64,000 bases of DNA from Takakia lepidozioides. Lineage: Eukaryota; Plantae; Bryophyta. The stretch is taken from assembly GCA_030704615.1 (NCBI GenBank), contig CM060731.1:16802001-16866000 (forward strand), given 5' to 3'. The notes under the pieces were generated by a model, which ran no database searches, had not been told where the DNA came from, and saw nothing but the letters and a program-made list of their open reading frames with translations. The position numbers were made by a program, and so were the translations under genes. Positions 46 to 50,570 of this stretch are shown here, piece after piece; positions within the stretch are counted from its first letter, which is position 1, and every line of letters starts with the position of its first letter.

Positions 46-1980
46 GACAGAAGTCTGTCAACAGGGAAATTCTTTTTGGATCTCTTGGGAGCAGTGGAAC
101 CAAGAGTGATCAACTGGTCTCTGGTTACCCAGGGTGAAACAGGTGAGCAGTTAACAATCAATCCTTGAGCATGTCAATGTGAGGTTAGGATTATTTGCAA
201 ATGCAATTTCACTATACTTTGTGGAAGGATTAGTTGTCTGAGCTGACAATCCATTATCTGAGGTCTGCTGAGTGGATCAGCAGTAGGCTGGAGCAAGCCA
301 AGTGCCATAAGATCTGGAAATGGGCTCAAAATGTGGCTACTCTTTTGTATCAGACCATGACTTCTTATAGGTGCAACTGTCTGATGCAGATGAGGATAAG
401 AAGCAAAATGCTAATTACATCATCAGTGTGGCACGGAAGCTTGGGTGCTCTATTTTCCTCTTGTGGGATGACATTGTTGAGGTGGATTTCTCACTCTTTT
501 TCTTCCTTCCTGTTGGTGACAAACATGGAAATCTTCTGATTTGCATTGAGAATTTATAATAGTAAGGCCAGTACTACAGCACCAAACTATAAGAATTGGC
601 TAGGTCTTCTCTCCACAGGGATACTGCCTATGGACCAGCAGCTAGATAAAGAAAAAAGAGCTAGAGCCACTTGAAATTAGACTGCTAGATTAAATATTTT
701 CGTGGGAAGTTCTCGGACAGATCAAACTGTACCCCAAGACCAGAGGGACCATTTGAAATCCGGGGGAGAGAACTGATATAACTACATATATTGTATACAG
801 GTTCCATGTGCATGTTTTGAGGGGGTAGAGCAATTGAAGAGATCCCTTCTTAAATACCTGGAAAGAACCTGCAGGTCGGAAGGAAGCTTTCACTCTCTCT
901 CCAATACTGAAGAAGTTTGGCCATAAGTGAATCAGATGCACAACCATCAGCATCCGGTCCGCAGATAGACAGAGAGGTGTTGTCCCTTTCTTCCGTTTGC
1001 AAAGGGCTTATCTTACACAAATGACTGACATTGGAAAGCTGTGTCTTATGCAAAGATTGAGCTGCAAAGGATCCTGGACTTGGAACACTAGCTCCTCTCG
1101 GTCATACAGAATTTGAGAAAAGAGCTGTGTTTGCTCTGAGCTGACATTGCTGTGAAAAGAGCTTGGGACATATCCTGGTCTTCAATGGTTGAGGGGGAAG
1201 ATGCTCAGAGATTTCACTTACCAAAGGCCTTCTAGCTGTGAATTCTAGCTGGTCTAGGTTCTATTCATCTTCAGCTATCCCTCTGGCCTTGGCATATGGA
1301 GCTCCTAAACCTATGTTCCTTGCCTGTTCCTGTCCTGACGTTTGCCAGGTCTCGGTCCATTATCTTTTGAGCTTGGTGGGCTTGGTGTTCTTTGCCCATC
1401 CCTGGCTGGGGGAATTACCTTGTTCCATTTCTCTCCTTAGGGTTGAGCTTGGCCTTCTGCTTGTGAGAAATCAGTATGCCGACACTCCGAAAAAAGAATG
1501 GTATGGGTGATGGAACATGGTGTTGACTCAGGGGTGGAGAAAGAACCTGAGGGGTCCTACAGCGATAGAGCCAGCCAGCCAGCCAGCCAGTTTCTGAAAA
1601 GATGCACGCTACCTGTGCAGGCCAAAGTTGTACACATGGTTATATGTGACTCCTTTGAAATTCCCTAGTCCGCATGTCAATATTTTCTGGGTATATTTAA
1701 CCTTGTTGTACAAGGATGGCAGACACCCGCTTCTTAGTTGTTATAGATTCACTATAAGATAGCCCCAATCCACTATTGCTACTATTTTAAACTAGATATC
1801 AGTGGTCTTGCAGGAGCTGACCCATGTAGTCTTTCTTGTGGCTCCCTTTTTCAACAGGTTCGGCCAAAGATGATATTGACTTTGACTGCAAGTGTCATGC
1901 TTTGGAGTCTGTCTAGTAAAGCAAATAGAGCTGTGGAGGATGCTGCTGCATTAGAACATGGAGCCGAGTCGTTAACGTAA
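46..1980 (+). CDS. FIM: Fimbrin/plastin, last three coding exons (46-142, 390-481, 1858-1980); CH4 domain and stop; gene starts upstream of the window
   Basis: GT-AG spliced translation [81 protein letters not shown]...SLT*, the typical plant fimbrin CH4; exon phases are consistent. Confidence 0.95.
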
Positions 1981-2744: not shown

Positions 2745-2872
2745 GTTAGAGGTAAAGCTAACCCTCTTTCCAAATGTGAGGCAAGAAGATTATACCAGAC
2801 ATGAGGAGGTAGCAGGATTTGAACCCAGCATCACTTGGGTGCCACTCAGTGCTCTATCCAACTGACTGGCGG
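2745..2872 (-). mobile_element. tRNA-derived SINE, copy 1
   Basis: Minus strand reads cagttggatagagcactgagtggcacccaagtgatgctgggttcaaatcctgctac (A-box and B-box like); head and tail are similar to copies at about 6390 and 30300. Confidence 0.7.
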
Positions 2873-6384: not shown

Positions 6385-6560
6385 AATCAATAGCTCAGTT
6401 GGATAGTGCATTGAGTGCCACAAAGGTGATTCTGGGTTTGATTTTGCTATCTGATAGGGTGCGGTGATATATCTTCTCCCACTTCCCTTGGACAGTGTAC
6501 CATGAGCCTTGTGAGCTCAAGGTGAAGTTACTTTGAAAGAGGTTATCTCTCCACTCCCTA
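6385..6560 (+). mobile_element. tRNA-derived SINE, copy 2
   Basis: tagctcagttggatagtgcattgagtgccacaaaggtgattctgggtttgattttgctat (A-box, degenerate B-box), then a tail like tgaaagaggttatctctcc. Confidence 0.7.
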
Positions 6561-6845
6561 CAATTATGGGGCCTGATTTAGGAGAACCATGCTCCGCTCT
6601 ACCCTTAATAACAATAATAGTCGGCATCGGCAACGGCAACAACCCAAAAACATAATAATAATCAACAAATCAAATAGAGGCAAGTGGTGCGTCCAACAAC
6701 TGGAAATCGTCATCGTCATCATCATCGTCAAGGTCCACTCCCGGCTCCTTGTCCTCGTCCAAAGGGTTGCGGAGAAGGAGAACGGAATGGAAATTGTCCC
6801 TTGAGCACTCCACATCCTGAATGGAATTCACACGTAACGAAGGGA

Positions 6846-7620
6846 TTACCTCGGAACAAATTTCCAATGGAGACGTCGTTTGACAGGAAGGCCATAATCC
6901 ACAGATTTTCTGGCCTGGAGTAAAACAAGAACATCAGACCCAGTATTAGGGAAAATAAAATGACGAGTTAGAATTCAGATATAAGTAATTTTACCTGACT
7001 CCTTCTGATTTGGGCTGTCTAACCCTCGTGCTGGGTAGAGAAGGAGGGAAGAGAGGCAACAGTGTGCTGCGGAGCCACAGCCTCAGCCGCATCCTCAATG
7101 GCTGACATTCTGGAGGTAGATTTCAGACCCTTGACACTTCAAAGGGAGGGTGAGGAAGATTGTAGAGTGAGGTCCACGAAATCCCCTGCACATTTGTCAG
7201 GTTGGCTTCCACCTTCGACATTCAATCCTACACAATCACGCGACGGAACATCCTTTTCAGGAATGGACTGAAGAAGAAGGTCGTGCAATTGAACGGAAGC
7301 CAAGTGCCTGGATGATGCTTCACCGTCGATGACAGAAATCTGAACATTAATTTGAATGTTGTCCCTCTGTCGACGAATTTCTGATATGGAGGATTCCAAT
7401 GGAGGTCCCGACGAGAAGTTTGTATCTGCAGCATCTCCATGAACCTGCCCAAACGAACTCGCATGATCTATGTACAGACAAAAGATAACCTCCACTGTAC
7501 AATGGAGGTTGTCGGATTTGAAAAAGCCCCCAAGACGAGTTTCGGAAAAGGCCTGTATCCCATAGGATCGGGGTGGTATAGGGTGGAGAAACGCATGGGT
7601 GAGACTATGAAATAGCAAAC
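6846..7620 (-). pseudogene. Terminal exons of the minus-strand cassette, unknown product
   Basis: 159-aa ORF 7139-7618 continues past stops to a donor (cag|gtaa near 6994) and an acceptor (ctccag near 6915), then ARKSVDYGLPVKRRLHWKFVPR*. Confidence 0.4.
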
Positions 7621-8509
7621 AATTTCATGTCAATTCACATTGAAACGGAAATCACATTAGACAACAGTCAATATAGAAATACAATACAACCTAGAGAAAA
7701 ACCAAACAAAAATATAGATTGCATCATAGACGTGGTTGATCAATAAAATCTTTATTTTGAAGCATCATATCGGAGATTCCCGTAATTAGAATCATCAATA
7801 TAATCCAAGAGAGGCTTAAACTTGGGATCGGTGGAAACATTCTGATAAGGCTTAAGTCATATATATCCTCTTTTCCCTGAGATAACTGGAAACGATGCAA
7901 GATTTCTTCATTTCAAGCAAATATTTCTAGAGAACCTTCTGGAGATAGGAAGAGTCTGTGTCAATGGATTCAAACGATTTTAGAATTAGACAGGATTCAG
8001 ACGGGTTCAACACACACTTAATAGCATAATCGTCCATGAGTAGAGTGTTACTCCTGTTGTACTGACCACCAAATCTTTGCCAGACCATCATCAATGGCTT
8101 CAAGAACAGACTCGGTGGGTCGTATTCTGATATAAATTGAGGGTGGACAGAAGTAGGACAAGAGATACAATCTTCTTGAGACATAACGAATGTCGGCTGA
8201 GAAAGACCCCGAAGCATAAAGTCCAGGACAAGCTGCAAGTTCTTGTACATCACTACAACAGATCGCGGTATATATGACTATCCCGTAGTCATAAACGGTA
8301 CATATGACTACAATGACTTTAAGTCGTGCAAACCAAGTGAATACAATGAGTACAGTATGGTCGGTCATGGATGACTGCAGTAAGATGAACCAAGTGATAC
8401 ATCTCACTATCATGTGGCAGTCATACGTACTTCTACCATACATGACTTAGTGTGCTGCTGCAAACTGTACACGTGTCTCTTTTTAATAAGTCTAGGAGGT
8501 TTTGTGGAT

Positions 8510-8750
8510 GTGCGCCATATGGCGTCTCCAGAATCTGCCACGTGGCATATCCATGAGGTGGTCATGCAGTCATCATTCTGACTACAACCATGCTAATATC
8601 TGGACACGTGGCATATATTGAGGAGGTCTTGTAGTCATGATCCTGACTACAACATGCTGATATCTAGACACGTGGCATGTATTGAGGAGGTCTTGCAGTC
8701 ATGATCCTGACTATGACATGATGATATGTGGACACGTGACATCATATGAG
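8510..8750. repeat. About 60-bp tandem repeats in the CACTA left subterminal region
   Basis: 3-4 copies of tctggacacgtggcatatattgaggaggtcttgcagtcatgatcctgactacaacatgct, each with CACGTG. Confidence 0.8.
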
Positions 8751-9204
8751 GGGTTGTTTGGAACTTTTAAATGTATTGAACAGTCAGAACCATGACTATG
8801 CTTATCTCATTAGGGTTAGTAGAGACTAGGGTTAGTATTATTCAAATATTGAACAAAGAGAATAACAAAGGGAAGAACAAAGAGACAAAAAATGACTGTG
8901 CAAATGAATGTTTTATTCACATGCAAGAATCATATGAAAGAACAAAGTCAGCAAGTGCAAAGGACAAAACATAGGCACTTAAAGATAACAGTAGATGTAA
9001 GAGCTTTTCTTAAACTATTGCCAGTCAAATTTACAATATAGCACCGAAGTCCCAAAATCTGGCTCCTCAAACAATAGTCTGACAAAGTGCAAAGGACACT
9101 ACATATGCACTGAAGATAACAACACATGCAAAATGCGAATGTCGTTCTACGTTTGCTACTGTTCCAGCACAACAACAAATCAGCAGGATAGGGTGCACCC
9201 ACAT

Positions 9205-9620
9205 TTCGCATGTACACATCCACGAGGGTATTGTTCAGAATGAATGTATTTGGTACAATTCCAGCTCTGACAATGTTACCATGGACTTCTGTGCCTTTTT
9301 CCAGAGCTGTCAGGCTTGCACATGCATTGCAAATGCACAAAGAAGTGATGTGGTCGGGCTTCACCCCTTCCCCCATCATTTGATCATAGGTCTCCAAAGC
9401 CTCCATACCACGCCTCTGTTGTGCATACCCTGCAACCATCGCATTCTACGACACCACATCTCATTCAGCCATAGTGTTGAAAACTCCTTTCGCATCCTTA
9501 ATGCACCCACATTTGGCGTACATGTCCACCAGGGCAATGTTCAGAATGACATCCGGTACAATTACAGCTTTGACGATGTCACCATGGACCTCTTTCTGGC
9601 CCTCTTGGATGAATCTGGAC
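9205..9620 (-). pseudogene. PLS-class PPR gene fragment, CACTA cargo
   Basis: ALVDMYAKCGCIKDAKGVFNTMAE*DVVS*NAMVAGYAQQRRGMEALETYDQMMGEGVKPDHITSLCICNACASLTALEKGTEVHG, with in-frame stops. Confidence 0.9.
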
Positions 9621-9964
9621 CCACACTCTATCCCTGCTCCTTCAGCTATCCATGCCTCTGCACAAATCATGCATACATCCTTGCCTTGCTGCTAGCAGCT
9701 AACGATGACAGCTTAGATTTGTTCTAGGAAACACCCAACTCAACTTATCACACTAGTTTCTATGCTCAATTGCATCTGCTACTCTCTATAATCAGACAGA
9801 CATTCACATTCTTGCCTCGATTGTCCCACCATTGACTGGGTAAGAAAAGTATTCATTCCACAACTTCTCCTCATCTCTGTTACCTGTTTCTGGATACTTT
9901 CCTGTTGTCACATTGGCAGTATCATTTCAAAGTCACTCCAAACTGGTTCACTCAACCAACTAAC

Positions 9965-11240
9965 ATGCAGAATTCAACATGGAAACTTAGGGTCGATTAT
10001 GATAAGAAGGAAAAATATGGTGAAATGTGTTGAAGAAGGTGCCTTCATTAGCTGTGCCTGATTTGTCAATTCCACCGCTACTGCTGCAGCTTCAGCTTCC
10101 AGTTGACCATCTATCCATGCAGGTTGCTAGGCTATTGATCCACAGGGAATCATAGGAGCTGAAGTCCATACATGTCCACCAGGGCAGCTTTGACGATGTG
10201 ATCACCATGGATCTCTTTCCCCTTTCCCAGAGCTCCCAGGCTTGCACACGCATTGCAAACACAAACAAATATGATGTGGTTGGGATTCTCCCCTTTGCAC
10301 ATCATTTAATGCTCACAGTTCTCAAAAGCCTCCATCCCACACCCTCGTTGTGCATATTCTGCAATCATCGCACTCCACAACACCCACATCTTGTTCAGCC
10401 ATACTGTCAAACACTCCCTTCATACATGTCCACGAGGGTATTGTTCATAATGACATGTGGTACAATTGCAGCTCTCACAATGTCACCATGGACCTCTTTG
10501 CCCTTCTCCAGAGCTACCAGGCTTGCACACGCAGTATAAACTATCAAAGGTTCATTCAACCAATAACTTACAGAAATTCAACATGAAAATTTAGGGCCGA
10601 TTTTGAGAAGAGGGAAAAACAGGGTGAAATGTGTTGAAGAAGGTTTCCTTCATTAGCAGTGCCTAATTTTATCAATTGTGCCACTGCTGCTGTGGCTTCC
10701 AGTTCACCATCTACCCATGCAGGTTTATTGTAGCAATGGATCCACAGGGAATCATAGGTAATCTTGTGCTTGAAATCCGGCCCTCTTCCAGCAAACACCC
10801 CAACCCTAATGATGAGAGGGCAAAACAGATTGAAATAGGTTGAAGAAAAAGGTGCCCTCACCAATTTAGGGCCGATTCTGATAAGAGGGGAAAATAGGGT
10901 GAAATGTGTTGAAGAAGGTGCCTTGAGTAGCCGTGCCTGATTTTATCAATTGTGTCGTTTTTGCTGCGACTTCCACAACAGAGATTGAAACGCGGCTTGC
11001 TAAGACCAAGCTGACTCTCCCAAGAACCTTGTAAACATTAGGAAGAATACCAAATCATAACAGGAGCCAAGAGCCCACATTTGCAGGATGGACTAACTTA
11101 GAACTTTACATTTGTACATTAAGAAAAAGCCACACCTTGTGATTGCGGTTATCCCACCATCGTGTAGAAATTCAGGGCCGAATCTGATGAGAGGTCAAAA
11201 CAGGCTGAAATAGGTCGAAGAAGAAGGTGCCCTCACCACA
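9965..11240 (-). repeat. Repeated unidentified captured segment, about 4-5 partial copies
   Basis: aatttagggccgatt...gaaatgtgttgaagaaggtgcc recurs near 9985, 10590, 10810, 10865 and 11170. Confidence 0.75.
10160..10530 (-). pseudogene. Second PLS-class PPR fragment, CACTA cargo
   Basis: Minus strand ACASLVALEKGKEVHGDIVRAAIVPHVIMNNTLVDMYE..., paralogous to 9205-9620, with frameshifts. Confidence 0.85.
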
Positions 11241-12401
11241 TTGTCCTCGACCTTGTGTCATGACCCATGGAGGATTTGACTGACCATGAACACAATAGGA
11301 CCTCTTGTGTATGTTGCTTGTGTCTGTAGTCAGTAATGTCGGATTGGTTTGTGAGAACCACCACGGTGCAGCCAGAAACGGGCGTCGATTGAAACACGGA
11401 CTGCTAAGACCAAGCTGTCTCTCCCAAGAACCTTGTGAACATCAGGAAGAATACCAAATCATGGTACTAACAGGAGCCAACAGCCCATTGCGGTTGCGGT
11501 GCAGGATGCGCTTCGCCCCTTCATGCATCAGTAGCTCAAGAATAGCAAAGCCTCCATCCCATGCCCCTATCCTGCGATCATCGTGTTCCATGACAGGTCC
11601 ATGACACAACACAACAGCTCGATACTAAGAAACTGCGTAGGAGAAAAAGAAAAAGAAAACTAAGTCCCAGCCCTCTCATGGGCAACCCTATAAACAACTT
11701 TTAAGGAAAAAAAAACATTTTGGCTACCAGGCTTGCACTATAAGTCATTCCGACGACTATTTGGTGGTGAGCTCGTGCTGGTCAACCATTGTTGACCAAC
11801 CATCCGTCTAGTGCGGAGCCATGCAGTCATGAGGACGTCTACCAAAGTAGTCGCCCAAAGGACTACGTAGTCACATAGTCATTTCAACGACTACGTGAAA
11901 CTCCATTTGGTCCAAAAATATAGGGAAGTCATGGTCAAAGTCAGAAAAACCATGACTACCACGGTTCGACAGTCAGATATACCGCGATTTGTTGTAGTGC
12001 ATCATGCACCTCCATATTCCTCGACGGAAATGTTTGTTCAACTCTGTCCACATCTCACGATATTTTTCCCGCCTATAGACAAGTCAAAATCCAACAAGAG
12101 CTGGTATCTTGTAGTCTGCCTCGAACATTCAGGGGATATTGTAGCTCTTCTGGTGCTTCAAGACTTTGCACAAAACTCCATTCAGGTCAAAAATTATCAT
12201 GCGCAATCCTTTCGCAAGTGGAGAAATTGGTGCTGCAATCTGTGAGAAATTCATACATCCACTTAGGTGGTAATCAAGATAAACCATGGACAGGATTGAC
12301 ATTGGGAGCAACGTCCACTGGACAGTCGAGGTTCAGGATAATCTTGAGCAGCCATCTACGTTTCAATCTGTTCCAATGAAGTGTCATGAAATTTTTGTTT
12401 T

Positions 12402-13160
12402 CTAAGATAAACCTGTCATTTGCAAATCCCATAGCAAGAGGCATTTGACCTTTGGGTCATTATACGGTCGACATCCTATGGGCTTTTCCACGTTGAATAT
12501 ATCAGCGTCTTTTCCGGATAACCGCAACTCTTCTAGGTGCGGTTTGAGTTCATCCAGAAGAAACATTGTCATTGTATAGGTCGACGAGCGCTTTATATTT
12601 TGGAGGAAGATACCGATCGACTTTGGGTTCAAGTAGGACTTATACATATTTTCTACAGTGTCGATGAGAAGTGTGTTTGATCTGTACGCTACAGTGTCGT
12701 CTACAGTGATAATGTTGTAAAGACGTTTAAGATAAATTGGCACTTTCGGATATTTGGGCCATTCGCCACTGAAAGTTTGTCTATGCTTCACGCAGTCCTC
12801 ATTGCTGAATTCCCTGACCTTGGAAAACCTTCTTCCAAACAAAGCCAGCCCTATATCCAGGACATTTTCTAACGGTCCAGTGTTCCAAAAGTAGACCTTA
12901 AAATGCTTAAGGACCCATTTCAGGAAGTCGTCCAAACCATTTCGGACTGCAAGCTTGAATTATCCAACGCATACACAAGGTTGGGTTATAGGAGGGGATC
13001 TCGAGCCATCTCGGAGGTAAACCTCACCAAGGTAACCGACATCATGAACTAGGACGTAGTATCCTGGTCGACATCCATTCAGTCCCTCAGAGAGGCGATA
13101 CCAATCCTGTGGGTTCACAAATTGGTGATAGTCGATTGGAGGGTGAATCATATCATTCTG
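12402..13160 (-). pseudogene. FCP1/SCP-like HAD phosphatase domain 1, degenerate catalytic motif
   Basis: YVLVHDVGYL (degenerate motif I)...VRNGLDDFLKWVLKHFKVYFWN...NEDC...IYLKRL...SNTLLID...KSYLNP; one stop at 12960. Confidence 0.8.
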
Positions 13161-13683
13161 TGGAATAACAGAACAATTAATTCATTTTGAAAACTAGAAA
13201 AAAGACAGAGAAGAACATTTTCTAAGATGGTTATGAAGTGTATATCTGCTTCGAGGAGGGATTCCGAATTTGCTGCTGTGGCTGATTGATCTCTTTTCCT
13301 TCGCGCTGAGCAACGACCATCTCCGACTCATTTCCTCCATCTCGCAACGTCGACTGGGCAGTGGAGGTTGCTTGTATGACCGGATCAGGTGGGCTTACCC
13401 TGATTGTTAAGTCCACGTGCCTCCTCACTATTTGAGTCGCAATGGATTCTGCCCAAGTTTGTGTGATTTCCTCCAATTTCCGTTCATGGATCTATATGAG
13501 TTTTCGTAACCGTCAGTCACATGAAGAGTTTAAGGAGGTGGGAATATGACGCCAAACAAAAATCAAAATACAGATAAGCTATTGACAAAAACACAACCAG
13601 AACACAACCAGATGCAATACACACAATTTGTTCAATTTAAAATACTTAAAGACACCACAAATCTACAGGTGTCATTTGTTACC

Positions 13684-14748
13684 TAGAAGAAGAAGACTCC
13701 GGCCTAAACCGGCGTAACTAAGAGCCACTTTGCCTTGCGGCTACTGCCCCTTTTCAAGAGTGGGCCCTATGTGAGAACCGGTGTCCAGAGGACATCACAT
13801 GACAAGCAAAGGGAGTAGTACCTGTGGCGCAAGGGGTACTAGGTGGTACCCGTGGGGCCCATGGGGTACCCCATGGATACCGATGGGTACCCAAAGGCGC
13901 CCCGGGCACCTATGGGAGGGAAGGAGGGCTGGATTCGAGCTGGCGTTTGTTGGTGATGATAGCAGTGAGAGATCGAAGTGCGGTGAGGTGTATGGCTTTG
14001 AAGCATTTGTGGATGGAAATGATAGGGATTTGGAAATTGTTCTGAAGGGCAGAGATGCTATCATTATGGATGCCCCCTCTGGTGCCAGCAGTGATGATAT
14101 TAAGTGGGCCCGTGGCCCATCCCCGCCATTGGATAGCAAGGATGAGTGGTGCATATTTTTGGTGTTTTTCGAGGATGGAGGAGCTGGGGAAGCGGTCATG
14201 GTAGAATGTAAATTCTATGAAATGTATGGTGATGGTTGGGGATGGTACAGATGGTGGGGTAGTGTTAATGGGGAGGCCCTGGACTAGGAGGATGTCCGGG
14301 CATAGTCTCGCGGGACATGTGCATGACGTGTGAGGTTGGCATCTACAATGAAGTAGCCATGGAGGTACTTATGGTCCGAAGGCCGGCCTTGGTAGGTGCC
14401 AGCATTGATGAGTGTAAACCATCTAGTTTCATTGCGTCGTAATAAGAGTTTATGGATATGCCATACGGCATGGTTATGTCTAGCAATACGAAGTCCGTGA
14501 ATGACGGGGTGGGGACATTCGCTAAGAAGATGGGGCCAGGTATCGCGTGTGGCGTGGATGTGGGAGCAGAGTGGGCAGTGCGGGGATGGGAATAGGGTAG
14601 GCCAGAAGGTGTGTTTGCGTTGATGGCCTATGTACTGGGCGTATCTGAATTTAAGTGTTTGTCGTATTTGTGCGTAAGATGCAACTTTAGTATTCCAGAA
14701 GTGGTTTGATAATTTATGGTGAAGGACAGTGGTTTGATAATTGTCGTC
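13684..14748 (-). mobile_element. 5'-truncated non-LTR retrotransposon 3' end with CCHC finger and restriction-like endonuclease (Dualen/RandI-like)
   Basis: CPLC...DTWPHLLSEC...ARHNHAV, then after a frameshift RLCPDILLVQG...IHFIEFTFYHD...EKHQKY; (TTC)n tail at 13685-13696; GTTACC at both ends (13678-13683 and 14749-14754). Confidence 0.8.
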
Positions 14749-14754
14749 GTTACC

Positions 14755-17700
14755 CTCGATGCCCTCGTCCTCCTCCCTGTGTTCGGAATGTCCTCCTTCT
14801 TCTTCCAAATCTTCATCTTCCACTTCCTCATCATCATCATCGTCTCCGCCGTCAACCTCTTCAACAACATTGTCATTCTCAATTTGAAGCTTCTTAAAAT
14901 TTGCTTCAACTTTTTCTTTGCAAATTTTTTTTTTGGTTGAGTGGTTGATTTCAAGCACTCGAATGTTTCTTGCCTGCAGATAAACCTTGTCAGTAAAACA
15001 GAGGACGCGTTCAATCAAAAATGTAAAAAATATATTTAAAATGCAAACAAGTTTTACACTTACATGAAGGGCGTACGTCAACATCACGCCTTTGAAGATG
15101 TTGACAGCGGACATCCCGTCTCCACAAAACAGGGAGGCCAAATAGTCGTAGGTGTCACCTCGTAGCTCATGATTATAAGTCCTGCACTCTTCTTCAAAAG
15201 CTGATGGCTTCCCTAAAGGCCTTTCAAGAATTGACTGAATTAAGAGCACTGTCGCGATGTGCTCGTCCGGATTCTGCATCTCCTCAGGTGTCGCTGGAAA
15301 AACATAGTCCAGGCACAGGACAGTCCGAGAGAAAGTCTTCGTGCTGTTTTTATAAACATTTTCATACTCCCCCGGAACATAAAATCCCTGTCGGACAAGA
15401 TACAATGTTCTTCCGGGACCATTTTGGATGTAGGAGACTAGATTGGCCGAGGACGGTTGAGTCGAGAAGAAAAAAAAAGCACTCGTGTTCATTTTCCGAG
15501 CCACAAAAGCTTCCAGTATGTTCACATAGTCCTTGGCCTCAAATACCACAGAGTCATCTTCAGAAATTGTATTGACGAACACCATCGCTATGTTGTCAAA
15601 CCGTTTCTTCGGTGCGAGTCGCAGACGGGACTTGGCATCGGCGAATTTTGGTTCCCCGCCCCCCCCCTGAGAGGATAGTGAGACTTGAAACTCGCTGAAA
15701 TAATCGCCATGGCATCCTCTCTATCCTCATAAGCTGCTTTCTTGATGGAGGAGACGTACTTAACAAAAGCGGTCGTGAGTGGTTTTGTCTCCATGTTCAT
15801 CTTAATCTTGTTTTGGATGTAATCCGTCCCCAGTTTGTCTTTAAATGTTGAGAAATCTGCCTTATTGAAGTGGTACTTTTTCTTCACTTCATGCCACTCG
15901 TCCTTAGTGTATGGTTCCGTGCACTATTTGCTCCTTTGAGGCCACCCCAACACTTCCATAACATCGTCGACAATAATCCGACGCATTTTCATGTCGTCTA
16001 TGTACATGTTCATGCCTTGAATTGATTTGTCTTGTCCTTTATAATCTTGAATGGTCAATTTCAAGTCCAAGATTTTTTGCGCAACTTTTATCAGCTGCCA
16101 TCTGTTCAACCCTTGTAGCTTTGCGATAGAAGATTTCGTGAGTTGTTGCTGTTCACCCTTGTACTGTATCCCAAGCGGGTCGAGAAGCTTTCCCTGCTCC
16201 CAGCGTTTGAACACATCTTCCCAGATCTTCCAAATGTCGTCGTCGCAAAGTACTAGGACCATTGTCTCCTTAATGCTGTGTATCAAATGACAGACAAACA
16301 TGAACTCCTGCACATTCATCCATGGAAAAATTAGGTGTCACTCCGACAACAGAAGTATTCTTTAGCATAAAATGAATGTGAATAGTAGATTTTCATTCCA
16401 TAAATGCATACCTTCCATTGTTTCGTCTCGGACTTGGTGGTGTGATCGTTGTATTTCTTTGGCTTCCCCCTCAGGTTCAATAACATTCACGCATGCGCAA
16501 CTTTCTCCGGCATTGTTGTATCAAATTTTTGCGCCTTATTGGGATCGTTGAGGAGCTTTGACAACTTCAGGAGCCTTTGTTCATTGGTAGACCATACAAT
16601 CTTCGCAGGCCACTCCCGGTAGTATTCCTTAACTTTGTTGTCGGCAAGATCCTCGAGAAGTTCCTACTACAGTTAAGGTAAAATGGGTGAGAGAGTTGAA
16701 AGGGTAGGGACATATCCAATTTCGTGGGAACACCAACCTCCACTGCCTAGTGGAGGTTCGTTAAAAAAGAGCGTTGGGTGGAATTGAAGTTTATTACCTT
16801 TGCAGCCACGATGGTGTGTTGTCCACCAATGACGAAGAACCTGGATACGTCCATTTCTTTCCATTGCTTCGGTCACAATGAAGCAATCTTCTCGGGATTG
16901 GAAGGGTTGATTGGCGCAAGATACACCGGATGTTTGGAGTCGAACAAATGAAGCTGGAAGAGTTGCGCTTTCACTTCATCCTTATGCTTGATATTTAACA
17001 GCCTGTAAACCATGCTCCTTGGAGCTAGTTCCATCATGGAAACCTTCTCAAGGAAGGTACTCTCGAATCCAAACGGAAATACGTCGTTGTATTCCTTCGT
17101 GAGCCTCTCCTCCATCTTCTCGCACTTTTCCTTGTTGAAAATCTCCCCAGCTTTAGGTCTCTTGTTATCTGTCATCAATGTTGGATCCTGATCCTCCTTC
17201 TGTTTCTTTTTTCCTGCAGAAGTCCCGGCCTCATTGTCATCATTGTCGGCTGTCGACGACTTGCGTTTTCCCTTCTTCGGCTTTGATGCTTCCTCTAGTG
17301 CTCGCTTCTTGCGAATGTCGTTCCCCATTGCGTGCAGAAGATCCAGAAAAATACTCCAGGCCCTCGACAAACCTACGTCGGTAAACACTGAGCCCTCGTC
17401 AGGAAATCTAAAACCCAGTCCAATGCATTCACTCATCAACGACTTGTTCAGACGACCCACCTCCACTTTGAAACCAAACGCCCTGGGGGTCCTCGCATCC
17501 TTATACATGAACAAAACCAACATCGGGTTTTCCTCTTCAGATTCAAGCTCTATATTGAGAGTTTCTGTGTATTTTAAGTCTGTTATTACTCCAAGACTTC
17601 TGTAATGAAAAGACAGCTTGTGATCAGGAGGTGTACCCACAAGGACGATGCCCCAATCTGTCACCTCTGGGGACAACTCAAAAATTGCGGTATGGTCAGT

Positions 17701-17805
17701 TTTGAAATTTGAGGACTTCCGGCATATGAATGCGCTACAAATATCTCCAATCAATCTCGGGACGCAATCTGGTGGTGTAGGATGTCTTTTGTTACAACCA
17801 AACAC
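14755..17805 (-). pseudogene. Spliced gene: N-terminal domain, basic/acidic linker, ParB/Srx-like domain, helical region, inactive beta-class N4C/N6A MTase-like fold, acidic tail
   Basis: ParB-like PVYLAP...FFVIGGQHTIVAAK|ELL...EWPAKIVW...LLKLSKLLN. MTase-like FDNIAMVFVNT (motif IV degenerate) and YDYLASLFCGDGMSAVNIFKG...ALH|ARNIRVLEIN...ICKEKV. GT-AG introns at about 16666-16798, 16308-16411 and 14974-15063. Stops at 16873 and 15924; frameshift in the C-run near 15660. Confidence 0.6.
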
Positions 17806-18109
17806 AAATTCATTAAATAATAAAATAACAAGATCTCTCTACTAGCATCCATCATTCCATATATAAGAACCTCCACTGGATAGTGGAGGTTCATATGTAC
17901 GAGGCTTTCTACATGAAAGCAGAAATCTTCCATATTATACAGATGTTGTAGAAAGAAACTTTAATGAAAATGAGGCTCATGAGCCATTGAATATATCACC
18001 CTGAAATAGGACAAATCTTCAAATGAAATCTCTAAACCTAATTCCTCCAAAAAATACTTAGGGACTTCTCGCACTATATTCAGACGAGTCTATATTATGT
18101 ACCCAAGAA

Positions 18110-18765
18110 CTACAAAATGCTCCTTCTGATCTCCCTGAGTGTATCAGGCGAATAGTCTGGAGGGGTATATTTCGGGGATCCGGTGATACTATCAGGAGAC
18201 GCAGGGGAGTATCCTGGAGATCCGGAGACGTCCTCGAGTCCTAGGACTCCCTGTCTCGTTGCAGTGTCCAGGGAAAAGTTTGGAGGGTAATATCTTGCAG
18301 ATCCTGTTGTGGATTCAGGAGATACTAGCAAGTAACCCGGAGATGCGGGAAATCCAAAAACGGTCTCTCGTATTGCCGCCAATGTGTCCGGGGAATAGTC
18401 TGGAGGGGTGTATGTCGGATAATCTTGGGAGTAGGCAGGAGATCCGTTGACATCATTGTTTTCATGAACGCTATCTCTTATTTCCGCCAGGGTATCCATG
18501 GAGATGTCTTGAGATCTATTGTTGGGAGATTCGGCTGCGTTCCGCGGGGATTCTACAGTCACATTTTCGTCATTCCCAGACACTTTGTTCGGCTCGGTAG
18601 ACCCCCAACTGGATTTTTCATCTGGTTCTGAAACACCATGTTCTTGATCTGGATGGTCCGTTTCCATCACGTCTACCACACACCGTCTCTTGCTCCAATT
18701 TAAGCTAACGGTCTTGTACTCATCGTCAGACACCGGTTCCCCACCCTCGCTCCTCTTTTTCACAC
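18110..18765 (-). CDS. Disordered S/P/Y-rich ORF with three imperfect ~40-aa repeats containing Pol II CTD-like heptads
   Basis: GSPAYSQDYPTYTPPDYSPDT, ASPGYLLVSPES..YYPPNFSLDT, GSPGYSPASPDSITGSPKYTPPDYSPDT. Acceptor ttttttctgtcag at 18766; candidate upstream donor near 19776. Confidence 0.55.
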
Positions 18766-19899
18766 TGACAGAAAAAATAATCAGAGTGTGTAAGTGGCTG
18801 CCCGAAAGAAATATTAAACCTCCACTGGGTAGTGGAGGTTCTCAATTATCGTATTCTTGTCTCGTTGGAAAATATGTGTCACACTTACAATGTTGCACAT
18901 ATGATTCGAACACTCGTTCCCACATCGTCTCATACTGATTTTTATTTTTTTTCCAGAATTATCCGATTTCGTCCTTACTTTAAGAAATGTCTTTCAGCTT
19001 CCCCATACAGAATTCACGCAAACCTCCACTGGGCAGTGGAGGTTCCAGTTTTTTGTTACTCATGTGCATGACATGGGTCTACGAATAATCTACTCTGGCC
19101 TACACGAAGCCTACTGTTAGCCTATGTCTATTGTAAAATACAAGTACACTAGGCTATCGTGGTTTTTCAAAATTGCCAAATTCGACAAAATTGGATAAGA
19201 AATGAAAATTTCCATTCAGAATTGAATTTGAATGGGAAGAAATGCATCAACTATCGATTGACAAGAACAAACTAACGCTGGATTTGGGGATCAAGAAAAC
19301 GGTTGAGAAATAAACATCCAGACATTTCCGAAACCACTGTCCTCAAAAAACCACCACAATGAACAAAACAAGCAATACAACCAGCACGGTAATCTCCCAA
19401 CCAGAACAAGCACACACAAACCCTATTGCACACAAAACCACCCTACAAACCATCGGTGAATTGAAAAACAACAGTGAAGCAATGAAGCCGGAGTGCACTA
19501 AAGTACATAATGGAGCTGGAATGAAATGAATTGACAGAGAATGAAGCAAGAATGAAGCAAACAACAAAGCAGACAATGAAACAGAAACCTAATGTGCACT
19601 AAAGCACAGACTGAAGCACTGAAGCAGAGATGAGAGTGCACTGAAGACAGTGCAGTGCAGCATAGAATGAAGCAGGATCCAAACAGATTGAATCGAGAAC
19701 AGGCCACATGAATCAAGAGCGGGCCAACACAAAACATGAAACAAAAGACGAAAAGAAGGAGTTTTCAATGTTGTACCTGCTTGTGCCGGCCATTTTGATG
19801 CCCCTGCAACCACAGTCCTTCGTTTGATACTCTCTTCCGCACCTCCGCCTGCCGGTAATTGCACTATGCTCTTGCCTCTGCACTCGTCAATCTCCACTC

Positions 19900-20300
19900 G
19901 CCACTGTCCTATCACTCCTCCCCGCTATTCAAATTTTGCCTATTTCACTCTCTCACCTTTCACCCTCTCATCTCTCTGCACTCGGCCAAATCTGCTATCT
20001 TTCTCTCCACGCTCCAGTGTCCAGTCGTTGCAAAACGTGTTCCAAAACTCTTCTCTTTCACGCTGTCCTCTCTCAACTGTCAAGCTCTCACTCGCGCAAC
20101 GCTTACGCGTAGAAAATGGGAAGCCCAAAGGCCGGGCTCAAAGAGTGCACCCCTTATAAGCGACCTTCAAGGATGATATGAACCATTGCCTCCGTCCAAA
20201 ATCGAACGGTCGCGCGGCCCAAATGGATGTTCTGCCCCATCCACGCAAACTAACATTAATACTGTCCATCCACATAGATGAAATTAGTTCAACTTTTGTT
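19900..20300. promoter_or_regulatory. Putative promoter/5'UTR of the minus-strand cassette, possibly bidirectional
   Basis: GA-rich leader on the minus strand, GCCCA site-II-like motifs, AACGG motif and a CpG-retaining patch upstream of a donor near 19776. Confidence 0.35.
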
Positions 20301-20460: not shown

Positions 20461-23078
20461 TGATATTTAGGATTGACCCAAGTGTCAATCCAGGGATCAA
20501 TACATGTTTGGGCACCTGGTGTTGTTATCTTCACGGCAGATTGCGGTGGGCTCATCTTTCTCGAGTTGAGCCTCACCGCGTCTAGCTATGGCGCTGTAGT
20601 GTGGATTCCCCATGGCGTGGGGTGCACTTGGCTCGACTAAATATGAGTGATGTTTTCATGTGCATGTTTTGAGTTTGAGAGAGCTTGTGTGCTTGTATCA
20701 TTCATTTATTTATCACTCAAGAAAAATCAGCTCGAGTATGTGAGTGTCAGGTTCGAGTTAGTTGTAGCACTTGTGTTTTCAAATCATGAGAAGCTGTTCA
20801 GCCTAGAGTGCAGGGATCCGTGCATGAACCTATCCAAAGCGGATAGAGTACGAAGGCGAACAGGTTGCAGGTTTGTAATGGATAGAGAGGCGGGTAGCCT
20901 ATGTTGAAGAGCAGTGTTACATAGCTCAACGCTATGGCAACCAAGTTTGGGCTTCTAGTGTGAAGCAGAGGAGATGTTGGCCACAAGTGGGCGAACTGTG
21001 GTCGTCTTCTTCAGCTGCAGGCCGAGTTGAGGAGCTGCAGAAATGTGGGCTGCGCATGGGAAGCTAGCATGTTGCAGGTTAGAAATGATATGATCAGCTC
21101 TAGGTATTTCTCCCCGAAACTACTTGTTGCAGGTAGATGAGGAACAACTAAATGGTGGAGCTGTGAGGGGATGCATCGCAGCCCATTGGGAGCTTCAACT
21201 CCAAGCTCATGAAGAGGTATGAGTGAAGAGAGAGTGTGCAAATCAGTGCACTTGTGAAGCATATGTTGAGTTGGAGTTTCAATCTAAAACTCAGCAGTGT
21301 AAGGGCTCTTGGAGTGGCAAGAGTGGGGCTGGAAGGGCAGCAGCGAGGCGTCCTAGAGCAAGGGGATATGCATGAGAAGTGCATGTGCACCAAGTTTGTA
21401 AAAGTGTGTATTTTTAGATTCGTTTTTGTGAGCTTCATGAAGAAATGGAGCTTGTTGGGCAACATATTGCTTGCTTGTTGAGTTTAGGGTGCATCTGGTG
21501 GGTCGTGAGAGCCTAAGAGAGCATGGCAGCAGGTCTGGTGGCTTCGTAGAAGCCATAGCTCGGCGGCAGCATGTGCAGGAGCAAACCCCAGCTCGGGGAG
21601 AGTTCGGGAACGCCTCGGGAACGCATGGGAACTCGTTGGGAGTTCTAGGGAACGCATGGAACAGGTGGCCGTGATGGGCCGTTGGGGCGGTATCACAAGA
21701 TACCACGAGCCCAGGCCGTGACTGTTGACCGTGACCGTTGACCGTGACCGCAGGAAGTAGTGGTGCGGACACAACGGGTTGGCACGGTGACTAGATCGTG
21801 GGGATGGCGGGCCGTGAAGGCTTATGGGCGTGGTACCACGGGATATCACGGGGCAGCCCGTGGCCAACGAGCGCCTAGGGCGGGCCGTGAGGAGTCGTGG
21901 CGGTTGGAGCCACGGAAGGCCGCGAACAGTCAGAGTGAAAAAAACAAAAAAATAAAAATAAAATAAAAAATCTTTTTTCACTCGTTTCGTGGGACCTTGA
22001 TGGGGAGGCTGGGCTCTGAAGAACAACGGTTTTGAGCTAGCTGATCCGGCAGGAAAGTCGGAATTGTCTCCCTGTTGCATTTTAACAAAGGGGATTACTC
22101 CCCTGCAGGTAATCTTTTTGGGTTTTCAGCCCAATTCTTAACTAAGGGGGAGACTAGCCTGCAAGTAATTCCCTTAGACAGAATGTTGTTGGGGCCTATA
22201 TGTACCTCTATTTGCTCCATTTTTGAACCTTCAGTGAATGGCGTGGTTTCCTGAGGTTGTTCCACTCTCATGGTCATGCAAGTGAGATAAGAGAGGGAAA
22301 AAGAGGGTGTTGGGATGAGAGCGTGCTAGGGATAGGCATTGCTTTAGCTTCCCTTCCTTCTAGCTTTCCACCTTCTCTGTAGGCCGAGACCTTTTCCGTA
22401 GGTGGAGGCAAGAGTCAGTCCGGGTTTGGGTTGGGGTGTCATTGTAGGAGCGACACTGTGGAGTTATTTTTGGTGTGGGGGAGTTGTTGTTTTCATTCTT
22501 GTATTTGGATCCCCTCCACACCTGCATGCTTGATTGTGCGCCATGCTAGTTTTGTGTAGGCGCTTGATTTTATAGGTGGTTGACTCGGGCTTGATCGCCT
22601 ATCCAACCCTAGAGCATGCTGTCGATGGTGAGGCTGGGTTGATGACCAGTCAGACCATCTTTGTTTCTCCTGTGGTGAGGTTGGAGGTAATGACCAGCCA
22701 ACCATGGGAGCGCCTGCGGTGGATGCAGGTGCAGGCTAAGTTAGGAACCTAGTATTCCAAACCATAAGCCGCATCAGGTTCCTACCCAGTTACCTTGTGG
22801 AAAGGGGGTTAGGGAGTTCATGACCGGTTGAGTGTCAGTTTGTCAACACGGAGGTGCCACTAGTTGATGGGGAAAGTGTCGGTACGAGCACTAGCGATAC
22901 TAGCGAGTATACGAGACGAGGTATGCGGTTTAGGCCACCTTCACCTCCTGTGTCTTCTACGGAAGGTTCTGATTCGGATTGTGAATCAGGAGGACTCACA
23001 CCGGCGGTGCAAGTTGTTTCCTTGCCATTGTTGTGGGACACAATGGAGGAGATGTATGGAGCCACCAAGGGGCCATGA
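20461..23078 (+). mobile_element. Ty3/gypsy-like LTR retrotransposon remnant (LTR-like region, leader, gag start)
   Basis: 20480-21000 is homologous to 54720-55250; 22400-23078 is homologous to 58240-58910 (TRRG(M/V)RFRPPSPP...LPLLWD.M.EMYGATKGP); truncated. Confidence 0.7.
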
Positions 23079-23089
23079 AGGTATTCCGA

Positions 23090-23793
23090 AAAATAGTTAT
23101 TCATAAAAATGGTATTAAGAAATACAAAGATTTTTGGATCAAATGAATGTTGCTTGACGATCATTACCGGGGTGTAATGGAACAATACGACCAATACTGG
23201 GGAAATATTCTCGCCGAACTTGATAAGCCAATGTAGGACATTCGGGATCGTATTCAGCTTCTTAAGGGAATTCAAATTGGTCCTCAAATTGGTCCTCAAA
23301 CCATCGGAGGGATGGCATCCAGCCACAGATACTGGAAGATATGGAATATGAGGATGAAGTTCCAGAACCTTACTGTGGCCCTAGGTGCAAGCGTCCAAGG
23401 ATACCCTTGAATACGTTCGAGGATATTGAGAAATGGTTTTTTGTACTCGTTCGCCCTCATGACCCAACGACGTTCCCGGTCTAGATGGGAATAGCAATTT
23501 CAGATGTCATCCGAGAAAGGGAAGATCCTAATTTTAAGAAAGTGAAGGTGGAGTGGTGGAGACCGAAGAAAGGAGGTAACCCCTCAGACTTTGAGAGGTA
23601 CAAGGACTGTTGGTCAAAAGATTGGGAGTACAACCCGTCAGATTTCGCTCAATGGATCCACGTGAACAATGTCATGTGGACAATGCCGCCAGGAAAAAAT
23701 ACGACAAAAAATAGCACCAAGAGAATTACAGCGGTGGAAGCAGTGAAGGCGCGCGCGAATTTGGAGGAGGTTAACCTTCAGCCAGATACCTGA
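23090..23793 (+). pseudogene. C-terminal part of a Trp-rich hypothetical, possibly transposase-associated, protein with a beta-barrel-like domain
   Basis: GIKKYKDFWIK*...YDQYWGNILAELDKP...FVLVRPHDPTTFPV*MGIA...VKVEWWRP...YKDCWSKDWEYNP; the 5' part is replaced by the LTR remnant. Confidence 0.4.
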
Positions 23794-23966: not shown

Positions 23967-24010
<44 letters not shown>

Positions 24011-25700: not shown

Positions 25701-26249
25701 CTTGACCGAATCACCACAAACTTGGACCTTATTGCACTTAATATATCTAGTTACACCCCAAACCTTATTTTACTACCCTAGTAGGTCATCTTCCTAATGT
25801 TTCAAGCTATTTTAATATTTTACTGCCCTTCTCACACCCAAAACATCATTCCAATGGCATTATCTATGAATATTGTGCTTGTCAGCATGAAGATTCAATC
25901 AAAATTACTATCAACTTATATCGAGTATGATAGAGTATGAGTCTACCCCATGTTCGATTCGACACATTTGTTTATCGTGATTACATAATGTAATATTACA
26001 TCATTTGACTTCCCAGTGGACGTTCAATGAATTGTTCAGTACTACAACTTCACAAGCACTTCAATGTCAAATGGACATCTTATATGTCACATTTTGAAGT
26101 AAGTATGACATCACTTGTAATTTCACAAAGTTTAATCACACATTACTGTCCATGATATTATTAACATTTGAATTAATTTTAATTCAAATATATATTAAGT
26201 TTGGTTCGGATTTAAGCCAAAAGTCCAGAATTAGTTAAAATAGGGTTTC

Positions 26250-26800: not shown

Positions 26801-27707
26801 GTCGCTCCCAGATTTCCTTTTTAAACAATAATACAAATAATAATGGTTATGATCTATTATGTTCTCTTTATGCTACCGATACTCAATTATTGAAACTAAA
26901 GCCACTTTTATGCTTTCTACGGCAAAACTAAATCCACCTTTATTTTATGTTCTATTCACGCCCAAAATATATAGGTACGTACGTCTTCCCTTCGTCTCAT
27001 TTTGATTATATTTAGGTTAATAATCCAATAATTCACTTCACTACATCCAACCACTAGATGTAAGACGAAACAATAGCAACTTCTCGGCTTCCTGACCCCC
27101 TGCAGTGTTGGCGCAATGTTCTGCACCGAAGAAGCGGAGTAGAGCCCCAAACCATTTCCATCTCTTCTACAAATCGGTTCTACCGGAGGGAAGTCTGTCT
27201 TCAAAGACAGAGCAGACTTGAGGAAGAAAATGAATACTTTGGACATACTGGGGTCTCATCAAAACACGTCTGTTGGGATCCCAAGTCCGCCAGCAAGACT
27301 TTCCAATAAGGCGACATCGGCATTATTCGATATCATTTCTCCACTTTCTTCTCTTTTCTGTTCGTTTGGTTCTGCACTAATTAACTCCATCTTTTCTCAA
27401 TAGGCGGGGATGCAGCACGATACCTTCATCAATTTCCCTCCGTACAAAGTACTTTCTTGAACCTCCACTTGACAGTCGACGTTCCTCTTCTTAGCAATAT
27501 TAACCATCATCTTGAAACATTCCAAGCCCACAACATTGTACAGGATTTTGCCATTTTTTGCACAATCGTGTTGATCTTCCATACACTCAATCATTTTGGG
27601 TCATGGGTATTTTCATGGCAGAAACATTAATGTCAGTGTGTGATTAACCTACTCATGATAACTTTGTCTCTCATCCTTTACATGCAACAACGGGGAAGAG
27701 GAAACGG

Positions 27708-28525
27708 ATGTTGTTAATTTTGAGTGTCAACAGACTCCTCTACTACCGTCCACCCCCAACCGGCGGTGAACTATTTAAGGAGAAATTTCGTTTCAGGAAT
27801 GTGACACTTCAAGTTCTTGACAGACCGTTTGTGGTGCCTCGGCCTGGAGTCTTGGAGTTTCTGGACCTTGCATTGAAACATTTTCACGTGGCCATTTGGT
27901 CATGCGCTGATAGAGGTGTTCTTTGTAGGATGTCGGAGAGCTTCATCCCCACGAAAATAGCGAAGAAGTTTTGCTTCATATGGTCTGCTGAGGATTGCAA
28001 TGATACCACCGGTTATATCAGGCCCGGGATGAAATATCTCGTGAAGGATATTCGAAGTGTTATTGCCAAGTACCCTGGTAGACCGTTTGCTACGCGGGGC
28101 AAGTACTTATTGTAGATGATGAGCCATCAAAGGGCCTGTGAAACCCACAAAATACTGGATTTTTCCCTTTCTCATTCAAGCCTTCACCAAACGGCTTGCG
28201 TGACCGGGATGATATGACAAAAACAGTATGGCCATATATATCGGAGATGGCTGGAGCTTCAACAGTCGTTGATTACATTAGCGAGAACCGGACAAGGTGT
28301 TCTCAGAAGCCTATTGGTCGAGACCATGCCTGTTGGGCCTGGTATGGAAGATATCTTGATCCTTGTGTTTGGATCCCACAACAAAATGAACCTGATTACC
28401 TTTGTAGGCACGTGGATCCCACTGTTCTGTTGTTTGTTCAGAATTTGATTTTCCAATTTTTTTGCATTTGCATTTGCACTCTTACCTCAACAAATCCATA
28501 TGCAAAACTTCCACTTTGGGCCTAA
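27708..28525 (+). pseudogene. Third FCP1/SCP-like HAD phosphatase gene, degenerate
   Basis: LLILSVNRLL...RPGVLEFLDLALKHFHVAIWS...FCFIWSAEDC...YLVKDI, then a frameshift to LIVDDEPSKGL*NPQNTGFFP. Confidence 0.8.
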
Positions 28526-50417: not shown

Positions 50418-50449
<32 letters not shown>

Positions 50450-50570
50450 TGAAACCCAAGTTTGTGCTCATGTGATTTCAACTTTGGACACTCTTAGCTA
50501 CGATGAGTTTACACTGTCCAACAACGAAATATTTATTTTGGATGTCATATTACTTTGCCTTCATTGCCTC

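Follow-up and report, generated by a model that had tools for sequence, protein, structure and literature searches.

A decayed multi-copy cassette of ParB-like, methyltransferase-like and FCP1-like domains and its palindromes in Takakia lepidozioides

Results

Gene parts and copies of the cassette

The cassette described here lies in a 64,000-nucleotide stretch of the Takakia lepidozioides genome (contig CM060731.1 of assembly GCA_030704615.1, positions 16,802,001 to 16,866,000, forward strand), referred to below as the window and numbered from its first letter. Between 6.7 and 19 kb the minus strand of the window carries a co-oriented series of exons (Table 1) for a ParB-like core, a helical region, a methyltransferase (MTase)-like region and FCP1-like domains. 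Copies of this unit are many and share an order of domains and a terminus. Their palindrome differs from family to family but is similarly placed, and DxD, the catalytic motif, is missing from the FCP1-like domains read. The original prediction, made from the letters of the DNA, had proposed a candidate undescribed mobile cassette that combined a mimic of the C-terminal domain (CTD) of RNA polymerase II (Pol II), a ParB fusion to a dead MTase, and tandem FCP1-like phosphatases. The palindromes, the element termini, a third FCP1-like domain on the plus strand and a divergent gene fragment were all missed at that stage.

The predicted exon series was borne out by canonical GT/AG at the inferred junctions (16794/16664, 16411/16308, 15063/14974, 14753 and 13158), and by the first intron: exons 1 and 2 were matched separately, split at the intron position of the window, in 20 of 27 clusters of related loci. 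Exon 1 matched 12 relatives (best E 2e-11, phmmer), always on the core ending in GGQHT. The exon at 13231-13476 and the terminal exons, which had been placed in the same series, were without a match in the 51 related loci. The window copy is a pseudogene. It has 7 stops across the 8 pieces counted, plus frameshifts; exon 1 has a single in-frame stop (16873-16875), exon 3 one stop and a frameshift near 15665, and FCP1-like domain a carries a 1-bp extra base at 12420 compared to other copies. Contigs that we guessed to be RNA-derived cover the cassette at 12523-12763 and repeats only, and a 70-nt skip (16840-16911) is present in DNA too, so these contigs give no evidence for splicing or expression.

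Both of the younger insertions that had been proposed were confirmed. The CACTA insertion (8251-11999) has terminal inverted repeats (TIRs) that are 91% complementary and is flanked by a CAT/CAT duplication; it is absent from other copies: contigs of sequencing runs X1 and X2, which come from one sample that may be the window's own, join 8248 to 12001 as at an empty site. At the second insertion (~13684/13691-14750), GGTAAC is found on either side, and 225 contigs of run X2 part from the window at 13691. A Pfam scan of this insertion was without a match, and we presume it to be a long interspersed nuclear element (LINE) from its motif and tail. Outside the insertions, summed contig depth in run X2, which is not equal to copy number, was flat at ~4,400-7,100 in the cassette bins from 6.5 to 20 kb, compared to 52-70 for the X2 contigs identical to the window (the single-copy reference). 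The Ser/Pro/Tyr-rich YSP exon, the ParB-like exons and the FCP1-like exons are amplified together.

Relatives with the same domain order

Of 7,453 candidates, a profile built from the hits of exon 1 picked out a single long protein. This protein, Physcomitrium patens PNR49410 (1,491 amino acids), matches the family profile at E 4e-8; one gene model covers its core and helical region, its MTase-like region and acidic tract, and a NIF match at E 3e-11. A metagenome scan for relatives gave the 51 loci in 27 clusters, with GC contents of 0.27-0.40 and with introns. The MTase-like region is present in 18 of the 27 clusters and FCP1-like domains in 13, or in 12 of the 17 that extend at least 4.5 kb downstream; two or three tandem FCP1-like domains occur in 8 clusters (FCP1-like cluster counts were read by hand). 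The order ParB-like, MTase-like, FCP1-like thus recurs in PNR49410 and in relatives among the 27 clusters, and the attempt to refute the co-occurrence of the domains failed. Together with depth, this conserved order elsewhere supports the idea that the cassette is cargo of a large multi-copy mobile element. The related copies are many and decayed, with stops and frameshifts. Two loci, L018 and L030, are internally shortened derivatives that retain array and terminus; in L030 an FCP1-like domain was not detected.

Other searches were negative within their scope. Protein searches with window exon 1 and the MTase-like open reading frame (ORF), which covered longer proteins, gave no match, and a single-protein metagenome scan was empty. 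Exact-motif scans of viral contigs and prokaryote genomes, which have low reach, gave no match, and a tblastn comparison of the ParB-like core with phages gave nothing better than E 2. An endogenous virus was set aside, as Pfam scans of the window ORFs showed no viral hallmark.

FCP1-like, MTase-like and ParB-like regions

The predicted FCP1-like domains were recovered by both Pfam and the family profile. Pfam NIF matched 12405-13160 at E 3e-4 and 7900-8250 at E 0.028, and the family profile matched window domains a and b at 3e-28 and 1e-20. The third domain (c), at 27648-28237 on the plus strand, matched NIF at E 2e-4 and has the motif LSVNRLL, without the catalytic Asp. Sequence matches thus support the assignment of an FCP1-like fold. 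The catalytic signature of FCP1/SCP phosphatases is DxDx(T/V). DxD was found in 0 of 10 motif-I matches of relatives (4 DLNG, 6 NxNG) and in 0 of 3 window domains (DVGY, DLNG and SVNR), and the Physcomitrium domain has DLNG. The notion of active CTD phosphatases is therefore not supported by any domain read.

When the MTase-like region was compared to eight N6_N4-type methyltransferases with hhalign, the best segment was the expected HPTQKP...D.F.GS.T stretch, on the S-adenosylmethionine-binding motif, with a score of 12.4, which shuffled sequences also reach (mean 11.8, maximum 16.5). No xPPY motif was seen in the alignment of the region. The AlphaFold model was poor (pLDDT, the predicted local distance difference test, 53.5), and the absence of a fold match at Z ≥5 by Foldseek and VIA neither supports nor excludes the fold at such a low pLDDT. 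The best Atlas value for the MTase-like ORF of the window, 0.77 to PARP clusters, was treated as noise.

The ParB-like core has a conserved R...GQH motif. In 9 of 11 rows read, GQH is followed by S, T or I, and the other two rows have GQRT and GKHI. By its Atlas features the core of the Physcomitrium relative lies closest to unnamed eukaryotic clusters (0.96), DUF3723 (0.95) and a ParB_N cluster (0.92). The AlphaFold model was again poor (pLDDT 52); Foldseek and VIA were without a match at Z ≥5, which at this pLDDT speaks neither for nor against the fold. PDB sequence searches with the cassette proteins were empty or gave noise, and PHROG and NCBIfam scans found no recurring family. The CTP-binding arginine of ParB proteins stands in a GxxR/GxHR signature. 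CTP use by the ParB-like protein is doubtful because none of the 11 rows has G-x-H-R.

Palindromes

The window contains a 26-bp palindrome with the consensus GAACCTCCACTG-NN-CAGTGGAGGTTC, for which we found 9 matches, compared to 0 in 100 shuffles. Scored by matrix there are 10 sites, all within 7.5-29.2 kb and none elsewhere in the window. With the insertions subtracted, the sites of the cassette fall at -1.8, -1.6, -0.6, +0.5, +2.8, +3.9 and +4.9 kb, and sites 5-7 occupy the interval that is held by 45-bp arrays in relatives. The relatives have a different, 28-bp palindrome (approximately GAAAYRCYTRGYGGCCRCYARGYRTTTC), with 348 sites in 345 kb compared to 0-1 in five Markov controls, counts that are partly circular, as are those of the window, since these sites had themselves served to seed the matrices. 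Most of the 348 sites (287) form arrays with a period of ~45 bp in the 2 kb that precede the core, and further sites are scattered at +3 to +6 kb. Of the 25 clusters that extend 1.3 kb or more upstream, 19 have arrays. The matrix of one lineage gave no hit in the other, in either direction.

Two further observations concern the palindromes of the window. A degenerate half-match (26001-26026), below the matrix threshold, lies ~220 bp inside terminus 26247 and parallels site 29134 inside terminus 29353. A 42-nt T run with GACGT on both sides (23968-24009) abuts palindrome 23945 and is possibly a poly(A) insertion with its duplication.

The YSP ORF

The YSP ORF is open for 243 codons from stop to stop and has 11 SP and 3 YSP. 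It contains one heptad-like match, YSPASPD (5/7, p 0.02 compared to shuffles), no tandem heptads, and a repeat period of 41 residues. There was no Pfam match and no match in the 51 related loci; no counterpart was found in P0026, which is without YSP, and 21 related upstream regions gave seven scattered single 4/7 matches. A related contig aligns to the ORF over 543 nt without gaps. It is probably coding, and it is lineage-specific. The original label of Pol II CTD mimic or decoy is not supported for an ORF with a single 5/7 heptad, none in tandem, a 41-residue period and no counterpart detected in relatives.

Termini and carrier

On the downstream side, homology among the relatives breaks off abruptly after the last FCP1-like domain. 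The inward terminus AAC(A/C)C-T/A-T-A-TTTAA... is common to 13 ends, 11 from relatives and two from the window (26247 and 29353); it was found in 9 related clusters and twice in the window, with unrelated flanks. The plus-strand tail at 27.4-29.35 kb matches the 3' end of the relatives and by this match belongs to a sister element. TT occurs at 13/13 ends (background 0.13). Of the 11 ends (of 13) that were read inward, 10 start with AAC and 1 with AAT. The AWDT bias of Sola1, whose 4-bp target duplications favour AWWT/AWDT, fits 4 of 11 flanks in relatives (background 0.081, p 0.009). In relatives the ends found are those of the cargo side, whereas the window has the end of the opposite side (26247); no single copy showed the two together. 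A nested end in L015 gave no clean empty site. A CACTA identity for the mother element, suggested by CACTA/CCCTA just inside the ends, was set aside because TT follows 13/13 ends. The carrier is likely a giant DNA transposon, and we give it about an even chance of being Sola1-like.

A divergent gene fragment lies on the far side of a high-copy repeat (Table 1). Neither it nor its counterpart in related locus L016 has a Pfam match; we take it, as a lead only, to resemble the C-termini of moss transposases. In two other loci (L033 696-1400; L041 1066-1481, minus strand), a divergent gene fragment (…ANGRVIACDP…) with a 46-bp palindrome array just upstream also had no Pfam match. The upstream regions of L016, L033 and L041 were Pfam-scanned as eight short pieces. 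A fragment of a B3 DNA-binding domain (E 9e-4) was seen at L016 1650-1910 (minus strand), in a region common to L025 and L046. In the window, ~205-bp tandem repeats rich in telomere-like AAACCCT words (24300-25700) lie between the divergent fragment and terminus 26247.

Neighbouring features

The high-copy repeat itself (20400-23080) has very high depth and lies between the 5' region of the cassette and the divergent gene fragment. It is probably retrotransposon-derived because similar copies, at 54630-55038 and 58238-58919, adjoin a gag match (59029-59547). In the single-copy DNA at 1-2600, a host gene is represented by its 3' exons, with a CH-domain match at E 0.011; we take this gene to be fimbrin-like. 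One guessed-RNA contig matches 1856-2154 exactly. One of three copies of a short tRNA-like, or short interspersed nuclear element (SINE)-like, repeat lies near where cassette depth falls. These and other elements of the window are listed in Table 1.

Table 1. Features of the window (positions in the 64,000-nucleotide stretch).
Feature	Position	Strand	Remarks
Host gene, 3' exons	400..1980	+	single-copy; CH domain
tRNA-like/SINE-like repeats	2809..2865; 6395..6438; 30274..30331		three copies
Terminal ORF and acidic piece	6690..7624	-	multi-copy depth ends near 6.5-6.7 kb; no element terminus found on this side
Palindrome site 1	7486..7511		
FCP1-like domain b	7900..12290	-	FDLNGVL; interrupted by CACTA insertion
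CACTA younger insertion	8251..11999		32-nt TIRs, CAT duplication
Palindrome site 2	12309..12334		
FCP1-like domain a	12402..13157	-	motif I HDVGYL, without DxD; 1 stop
Short ORF	13231..13476	-	candidate exon; contains palindrome site 3
Palindrome site 3	13345..13370		
LINE-like younger insertion	13684..14750		at intron start
Exon 4	14754..14973	-	end of MTase-like region and acidic tract, like the Physcomitrium model
Exon 3	15064..16307	-	helical region, then MTase-like region ending ELRGDTYDYLASLFCGDGMSAVNIFKGVMLT
Exon 2	16412..16663	-	second half of ParB-like domain; 1 stop
Palindrome site 4	16734..16759		inside intron 1
Exon 1	16795..17805	-	N-terminal region, basic linker, ParB-like core ending FFVIGGQHT
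Palindrome sites 5-7	17867, 18816, 19020 (17867..19045)		-0.6, -1.6, -1.8 kb
YSP ORF	18110..18765	-	open 218-codon exon, Ser/Pro/Tyr-rich, ~41-residue internal repeat; between palindromes 17867 and 18816
Divergent gene fragment, 3' part	23060..23793	+	5' side cut by high-copy repeat; palindrome 23945 follows
Palindrome site 8	23945		after divergent gene fragment
Element terminus 1	26218..26247	+	inward AACCCTATTTTAACTAATTCTGGACTTTT
Sister-element tail	27459..29353	+	palindromes 27459 and 29134; FCP1-like domain c; terminus 2 (inward AACACTATTTTAAC...)
Palindromes of sister-element tail	27459, 29134		
Long inverted repeat pairs	40300..46100; 49500..61250		other elements
LINE endonuclease	52057..52650		E 5e-6
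60/119-bp tandem array	61624..62414		

Discussion

What could such a cassette do? We read it as the accessory gene of a giant transposon, in which a predicted ParB-like protein would bind the palindrome of its own element and so regulate or protect its copies, and we give this reading about as much weight as all others together. The N-terminal core is quite probably a ParB-fold domain. A dimer of this protein would read the 26-28-bp dyad, probably via the helical region that follows the core, and protein and site would have changed together between the two lineages; we lean slightly towards this step. Somewhat less confidently, and short of an even chance, we suggest that the MTase-like and FCP1-like parts, in which no xPPY and no DxD were seen, may be modules that bind chromatin or phosphorylated host proteins and have little catalytic activity or none. 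The outcome is more tentative still: by analogy, the element could be kept expressed and unsilenced, as VANC does for VANDAL, or its promoter could be autoregulated. The element would be mobilised by a divergently encoded transposase, whose putative remnant in the window is truncated.

Several observations weigh against this reading. On the side of the protein, the ParB_N cluster has that family in only 35% of its members and shares 127 of 256 features with the relative's core; G-x-H-R was found in 0 of 11 rows; searches of Pfam, PHROGs, NCBIfam and PDB sequences did not return ParB; and hhalign gave no significant alignment to P1 ParB. Thus, of the predicted ParB-like protein, the Atlas feature match of the Physcomitrium relative and the R...GQH motif stand, and the searches of Pfam, PHROG and NCBIfam are without a match; of the MTase-like protein, what stands is a region kept in 18/27 clusters, and the N6_N4 comparison is not above shuffled controls. 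Of the three folds that profile searches had been expected to recover, NIF was recovered, and ParB and N6_N4_MTase were not, by profile or structure search. An FCP1-like domain was not found in 5 of the 17 clusters with at least 4.5 kb downstream. For the palindromes, besides the partial circularity of the counts, 6 of 25 clusters are without a matrix-scored array (one of them, L032, has a variant one), and covariation between the arms is small (0.605 compared to 0.576, sd 0.006). With regard to the carrier, the two flanks in the window (TCCA and TGGA) do not fit AWDT, and neither the opposite terminus nor a target-site duplication (TSD) turned up in the window or, for the 27 clusters, in flanks of up to 10 kb. 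The divergent fragment recurs in 1 of 27 clusters only (L016, E 6e-17, same arrangement), and L033 and L041 carry a different divergent gene behind a second array.

The cassette could be cargo as we propose and its palindromes still not be read by the ParB-like protein; a transposase or host factor might use them as its sites, or they might have arisen as a by-product when hairpins were amplified. Sites do occur near termini and next to divergent genes (23945, 29134), L033 and L041 have second arrays at -8.2 to -7.3 kb, and the weak arm covariation and a ParB assignment that is only a lead point the same way. However, in both lineages the sites are concentrated upstream of the core, at 0.6-2 kb, instead of in subterminal positions, their positions relative to the core are kept while the site sequence changes, and the red alga Bostrychia has, as described, the same adjacency to its ParB-like gene, so that we judge this explanation to be unlikely, with some real weight. 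A different carrier, a rolling-circle HLE2 element (Helitron2/Helentron), would leave the cargo reading unchanged; in this case TT would be the target site and the subterminal hairpin the stem-loop. The TT at 13/13 ends, the failure to find an inverted partner, and a hairpin (GGACTTTT-GT-AAAGTCC) ~19 nt inside most ends in relatives are what such an element would offer, and known HLE2s are found in land plants and have T/T as their insertion site (PMC11417382). Yet their stem-loop, which follows the right repeat, belongs at the very end, and the hairpin here lies inside a 19-nt tail; no RepHel was found among the 40 window ORFs scanned, and the AAC start and AWDT bias match a Sola1 element that carries the same kind of gene. 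We regard HLE2 as improbable.

Fainter still is the chance that the YSP ORF acts as a decoy of the Pol II CTD and the FCP1-like domains as active CTD phosphatases that together retune host transcription. An ORF of this length with its SP and YSP motifs, the gap-free alignment of the related contig, and DLNG domains that retain the first Asp could be taken in this way, but tandem heptads are absent, the period is 41 residues rather than seven, no counterpart beyond the scattered 4/7 matches was detected in P0026 or the 21 related upstream regions, and DxD is missing in all domains read. We find it hardest to credit a domesticated host gene family that was amplified by segmental duplication without a mobile element. 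The relative is indeed annotated as a gene in Physcomitrium, and no TSD was shown. Nevertheless, termini are sharp and shared with unrelated flanks, copies are many and decayed by stops and frameshifts, and the step to single-copy DNA is abrupt.

The accessory-gene reading has precedents. The nearest is Sola1-1_Ec32 of Ectocarpus, a 21.5-kb element with AACCG termini in which a 1104-residue ParB-like + N4C/N6A-MTase protein is encoded opposite the transposase, whose best match is Sola1-1_PPa; its authors suggest that the accessory protein binds the element that encodes it and modifies this DNA (PMC12477816). The window family resembles it in its predicted ParB-like and MTase-like regions and in its AAC-type termini. 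In contrast, it adds 1-3 FCP1-like domains, its MTase-like region is without xPPY, and family-specific palindromes have been mapped; this comparison is by description, with the TIR, TSD and transposase core of the window being putative. In Bostrychia, the ParB-like gene PAG3 adjoins tandem inverted-repeat arrays on giant DNA transposons, and the PAG cassette moves between superfamilies, with self-binding proposed (bioRxiv 10.1101/2025.02.11.637652). The repeated inverted repeats that adjoin the ParB-like gene in Plavaka PAG2/PAG3 resemble those of the window family, but there PAG3 is ParB + 2-oxoglutarate oxygenase, PAG2 is MTase + SET, no FCP1 is described, and the carrier is EnSpm, in red algae. 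The family is thus of a kind already known: it would work in the manner of the accessory ParB genes of algae and, as an analogue, of VANC.

In Arabidopsis, the targets of VANC evolve as tandem repeats and differ between related VANDAL elements, and VANC binding and hypomethylation were shown experimentally (PMC5735166). The likeness is that of a transposon-encoded protein with element-specific repeated targets, with the protein-site pairing of the window family being predicted from sequence. In the ParB/parS system of phage P1, too, several copies of the binding site lie next to the gene of the ParB protein; unlike this system, the window family shows no ParA and no G-x-H-R arginine, and its gene is spliced and eukaryotic. 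To FCP1/SCP phosphatases the family is linked by Pfam NIF matches (E 3e-11 in Physcomitrium, 2e-4 and 3e-4 in the window), and it differs in having DxDx(T/V) replaced by DLNG, N(I/V)NG, DVGY or SVNR, and in the tandem copies on a mobile element. DUF3723, the Atlas neighbour at 0.95, is conserved cargo of giant eukaryotic elements, the Starships (bioRxiv 10.1101/2021.12.13.472469); these are, as described, fungal and carried by a tyrosine recombinase, and the link is a language-model lead only. In the literature searched, with most subscription journals and Repbase outside its coverage, we found no land-plant ParB-FCP1 cassette, no DxD-less FCP1 tandem and no such lineage-specific palindromes, although a 2011 review of eukaryotic DNA methylation systems cited in PMC12477816 may mention plant versions. 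The original claim of an undescribed system therefore holds in part only, as ParB-like plus N4C/N6A-MTase accessory genes of giant DNA transposons are already on record from brown algae and red algae (PMC12477816; bioRxiv 10.1101/2025.02.11.637652).

Two algal genome papers have proposed that ParB-like accessory proteins bind and modify their own giant transposons (PMC12477816; bioRxiv 10.1101/2025.02.11.637652). The present family offers matched protein-site pairs from two lineages, whose palindromes differ but are similarly placed, and an annotated relative in Physcomitrium patens, in which genetics is routine. Self-recognition and co-evolution are directly testable because of these matched pairs and the Physcomitrium relative. 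Some moss genes annotated with an 'FCP1 homology domain' are probably transposon cargo, and the DxD-less FCP1 tandem suggests a path from transposon DNA to the transcription machinery. At its widest, and as a speculation that we think unlikely in its full form, giant transposons of early-diverging land plants may run a self-recognition system derived from parS/ParB, in which a ParB-like dimer would load on the palindromes of its family and co-evolve with them, and dead MTase and FCP1-like modules would hold Pol II or its phospho-CTD partners on the element, which would so avoid silencing by the host. If true, this would be a second, independently evolved anti-silencing system of plants beside VANC, built from the parts of bacterial partition.

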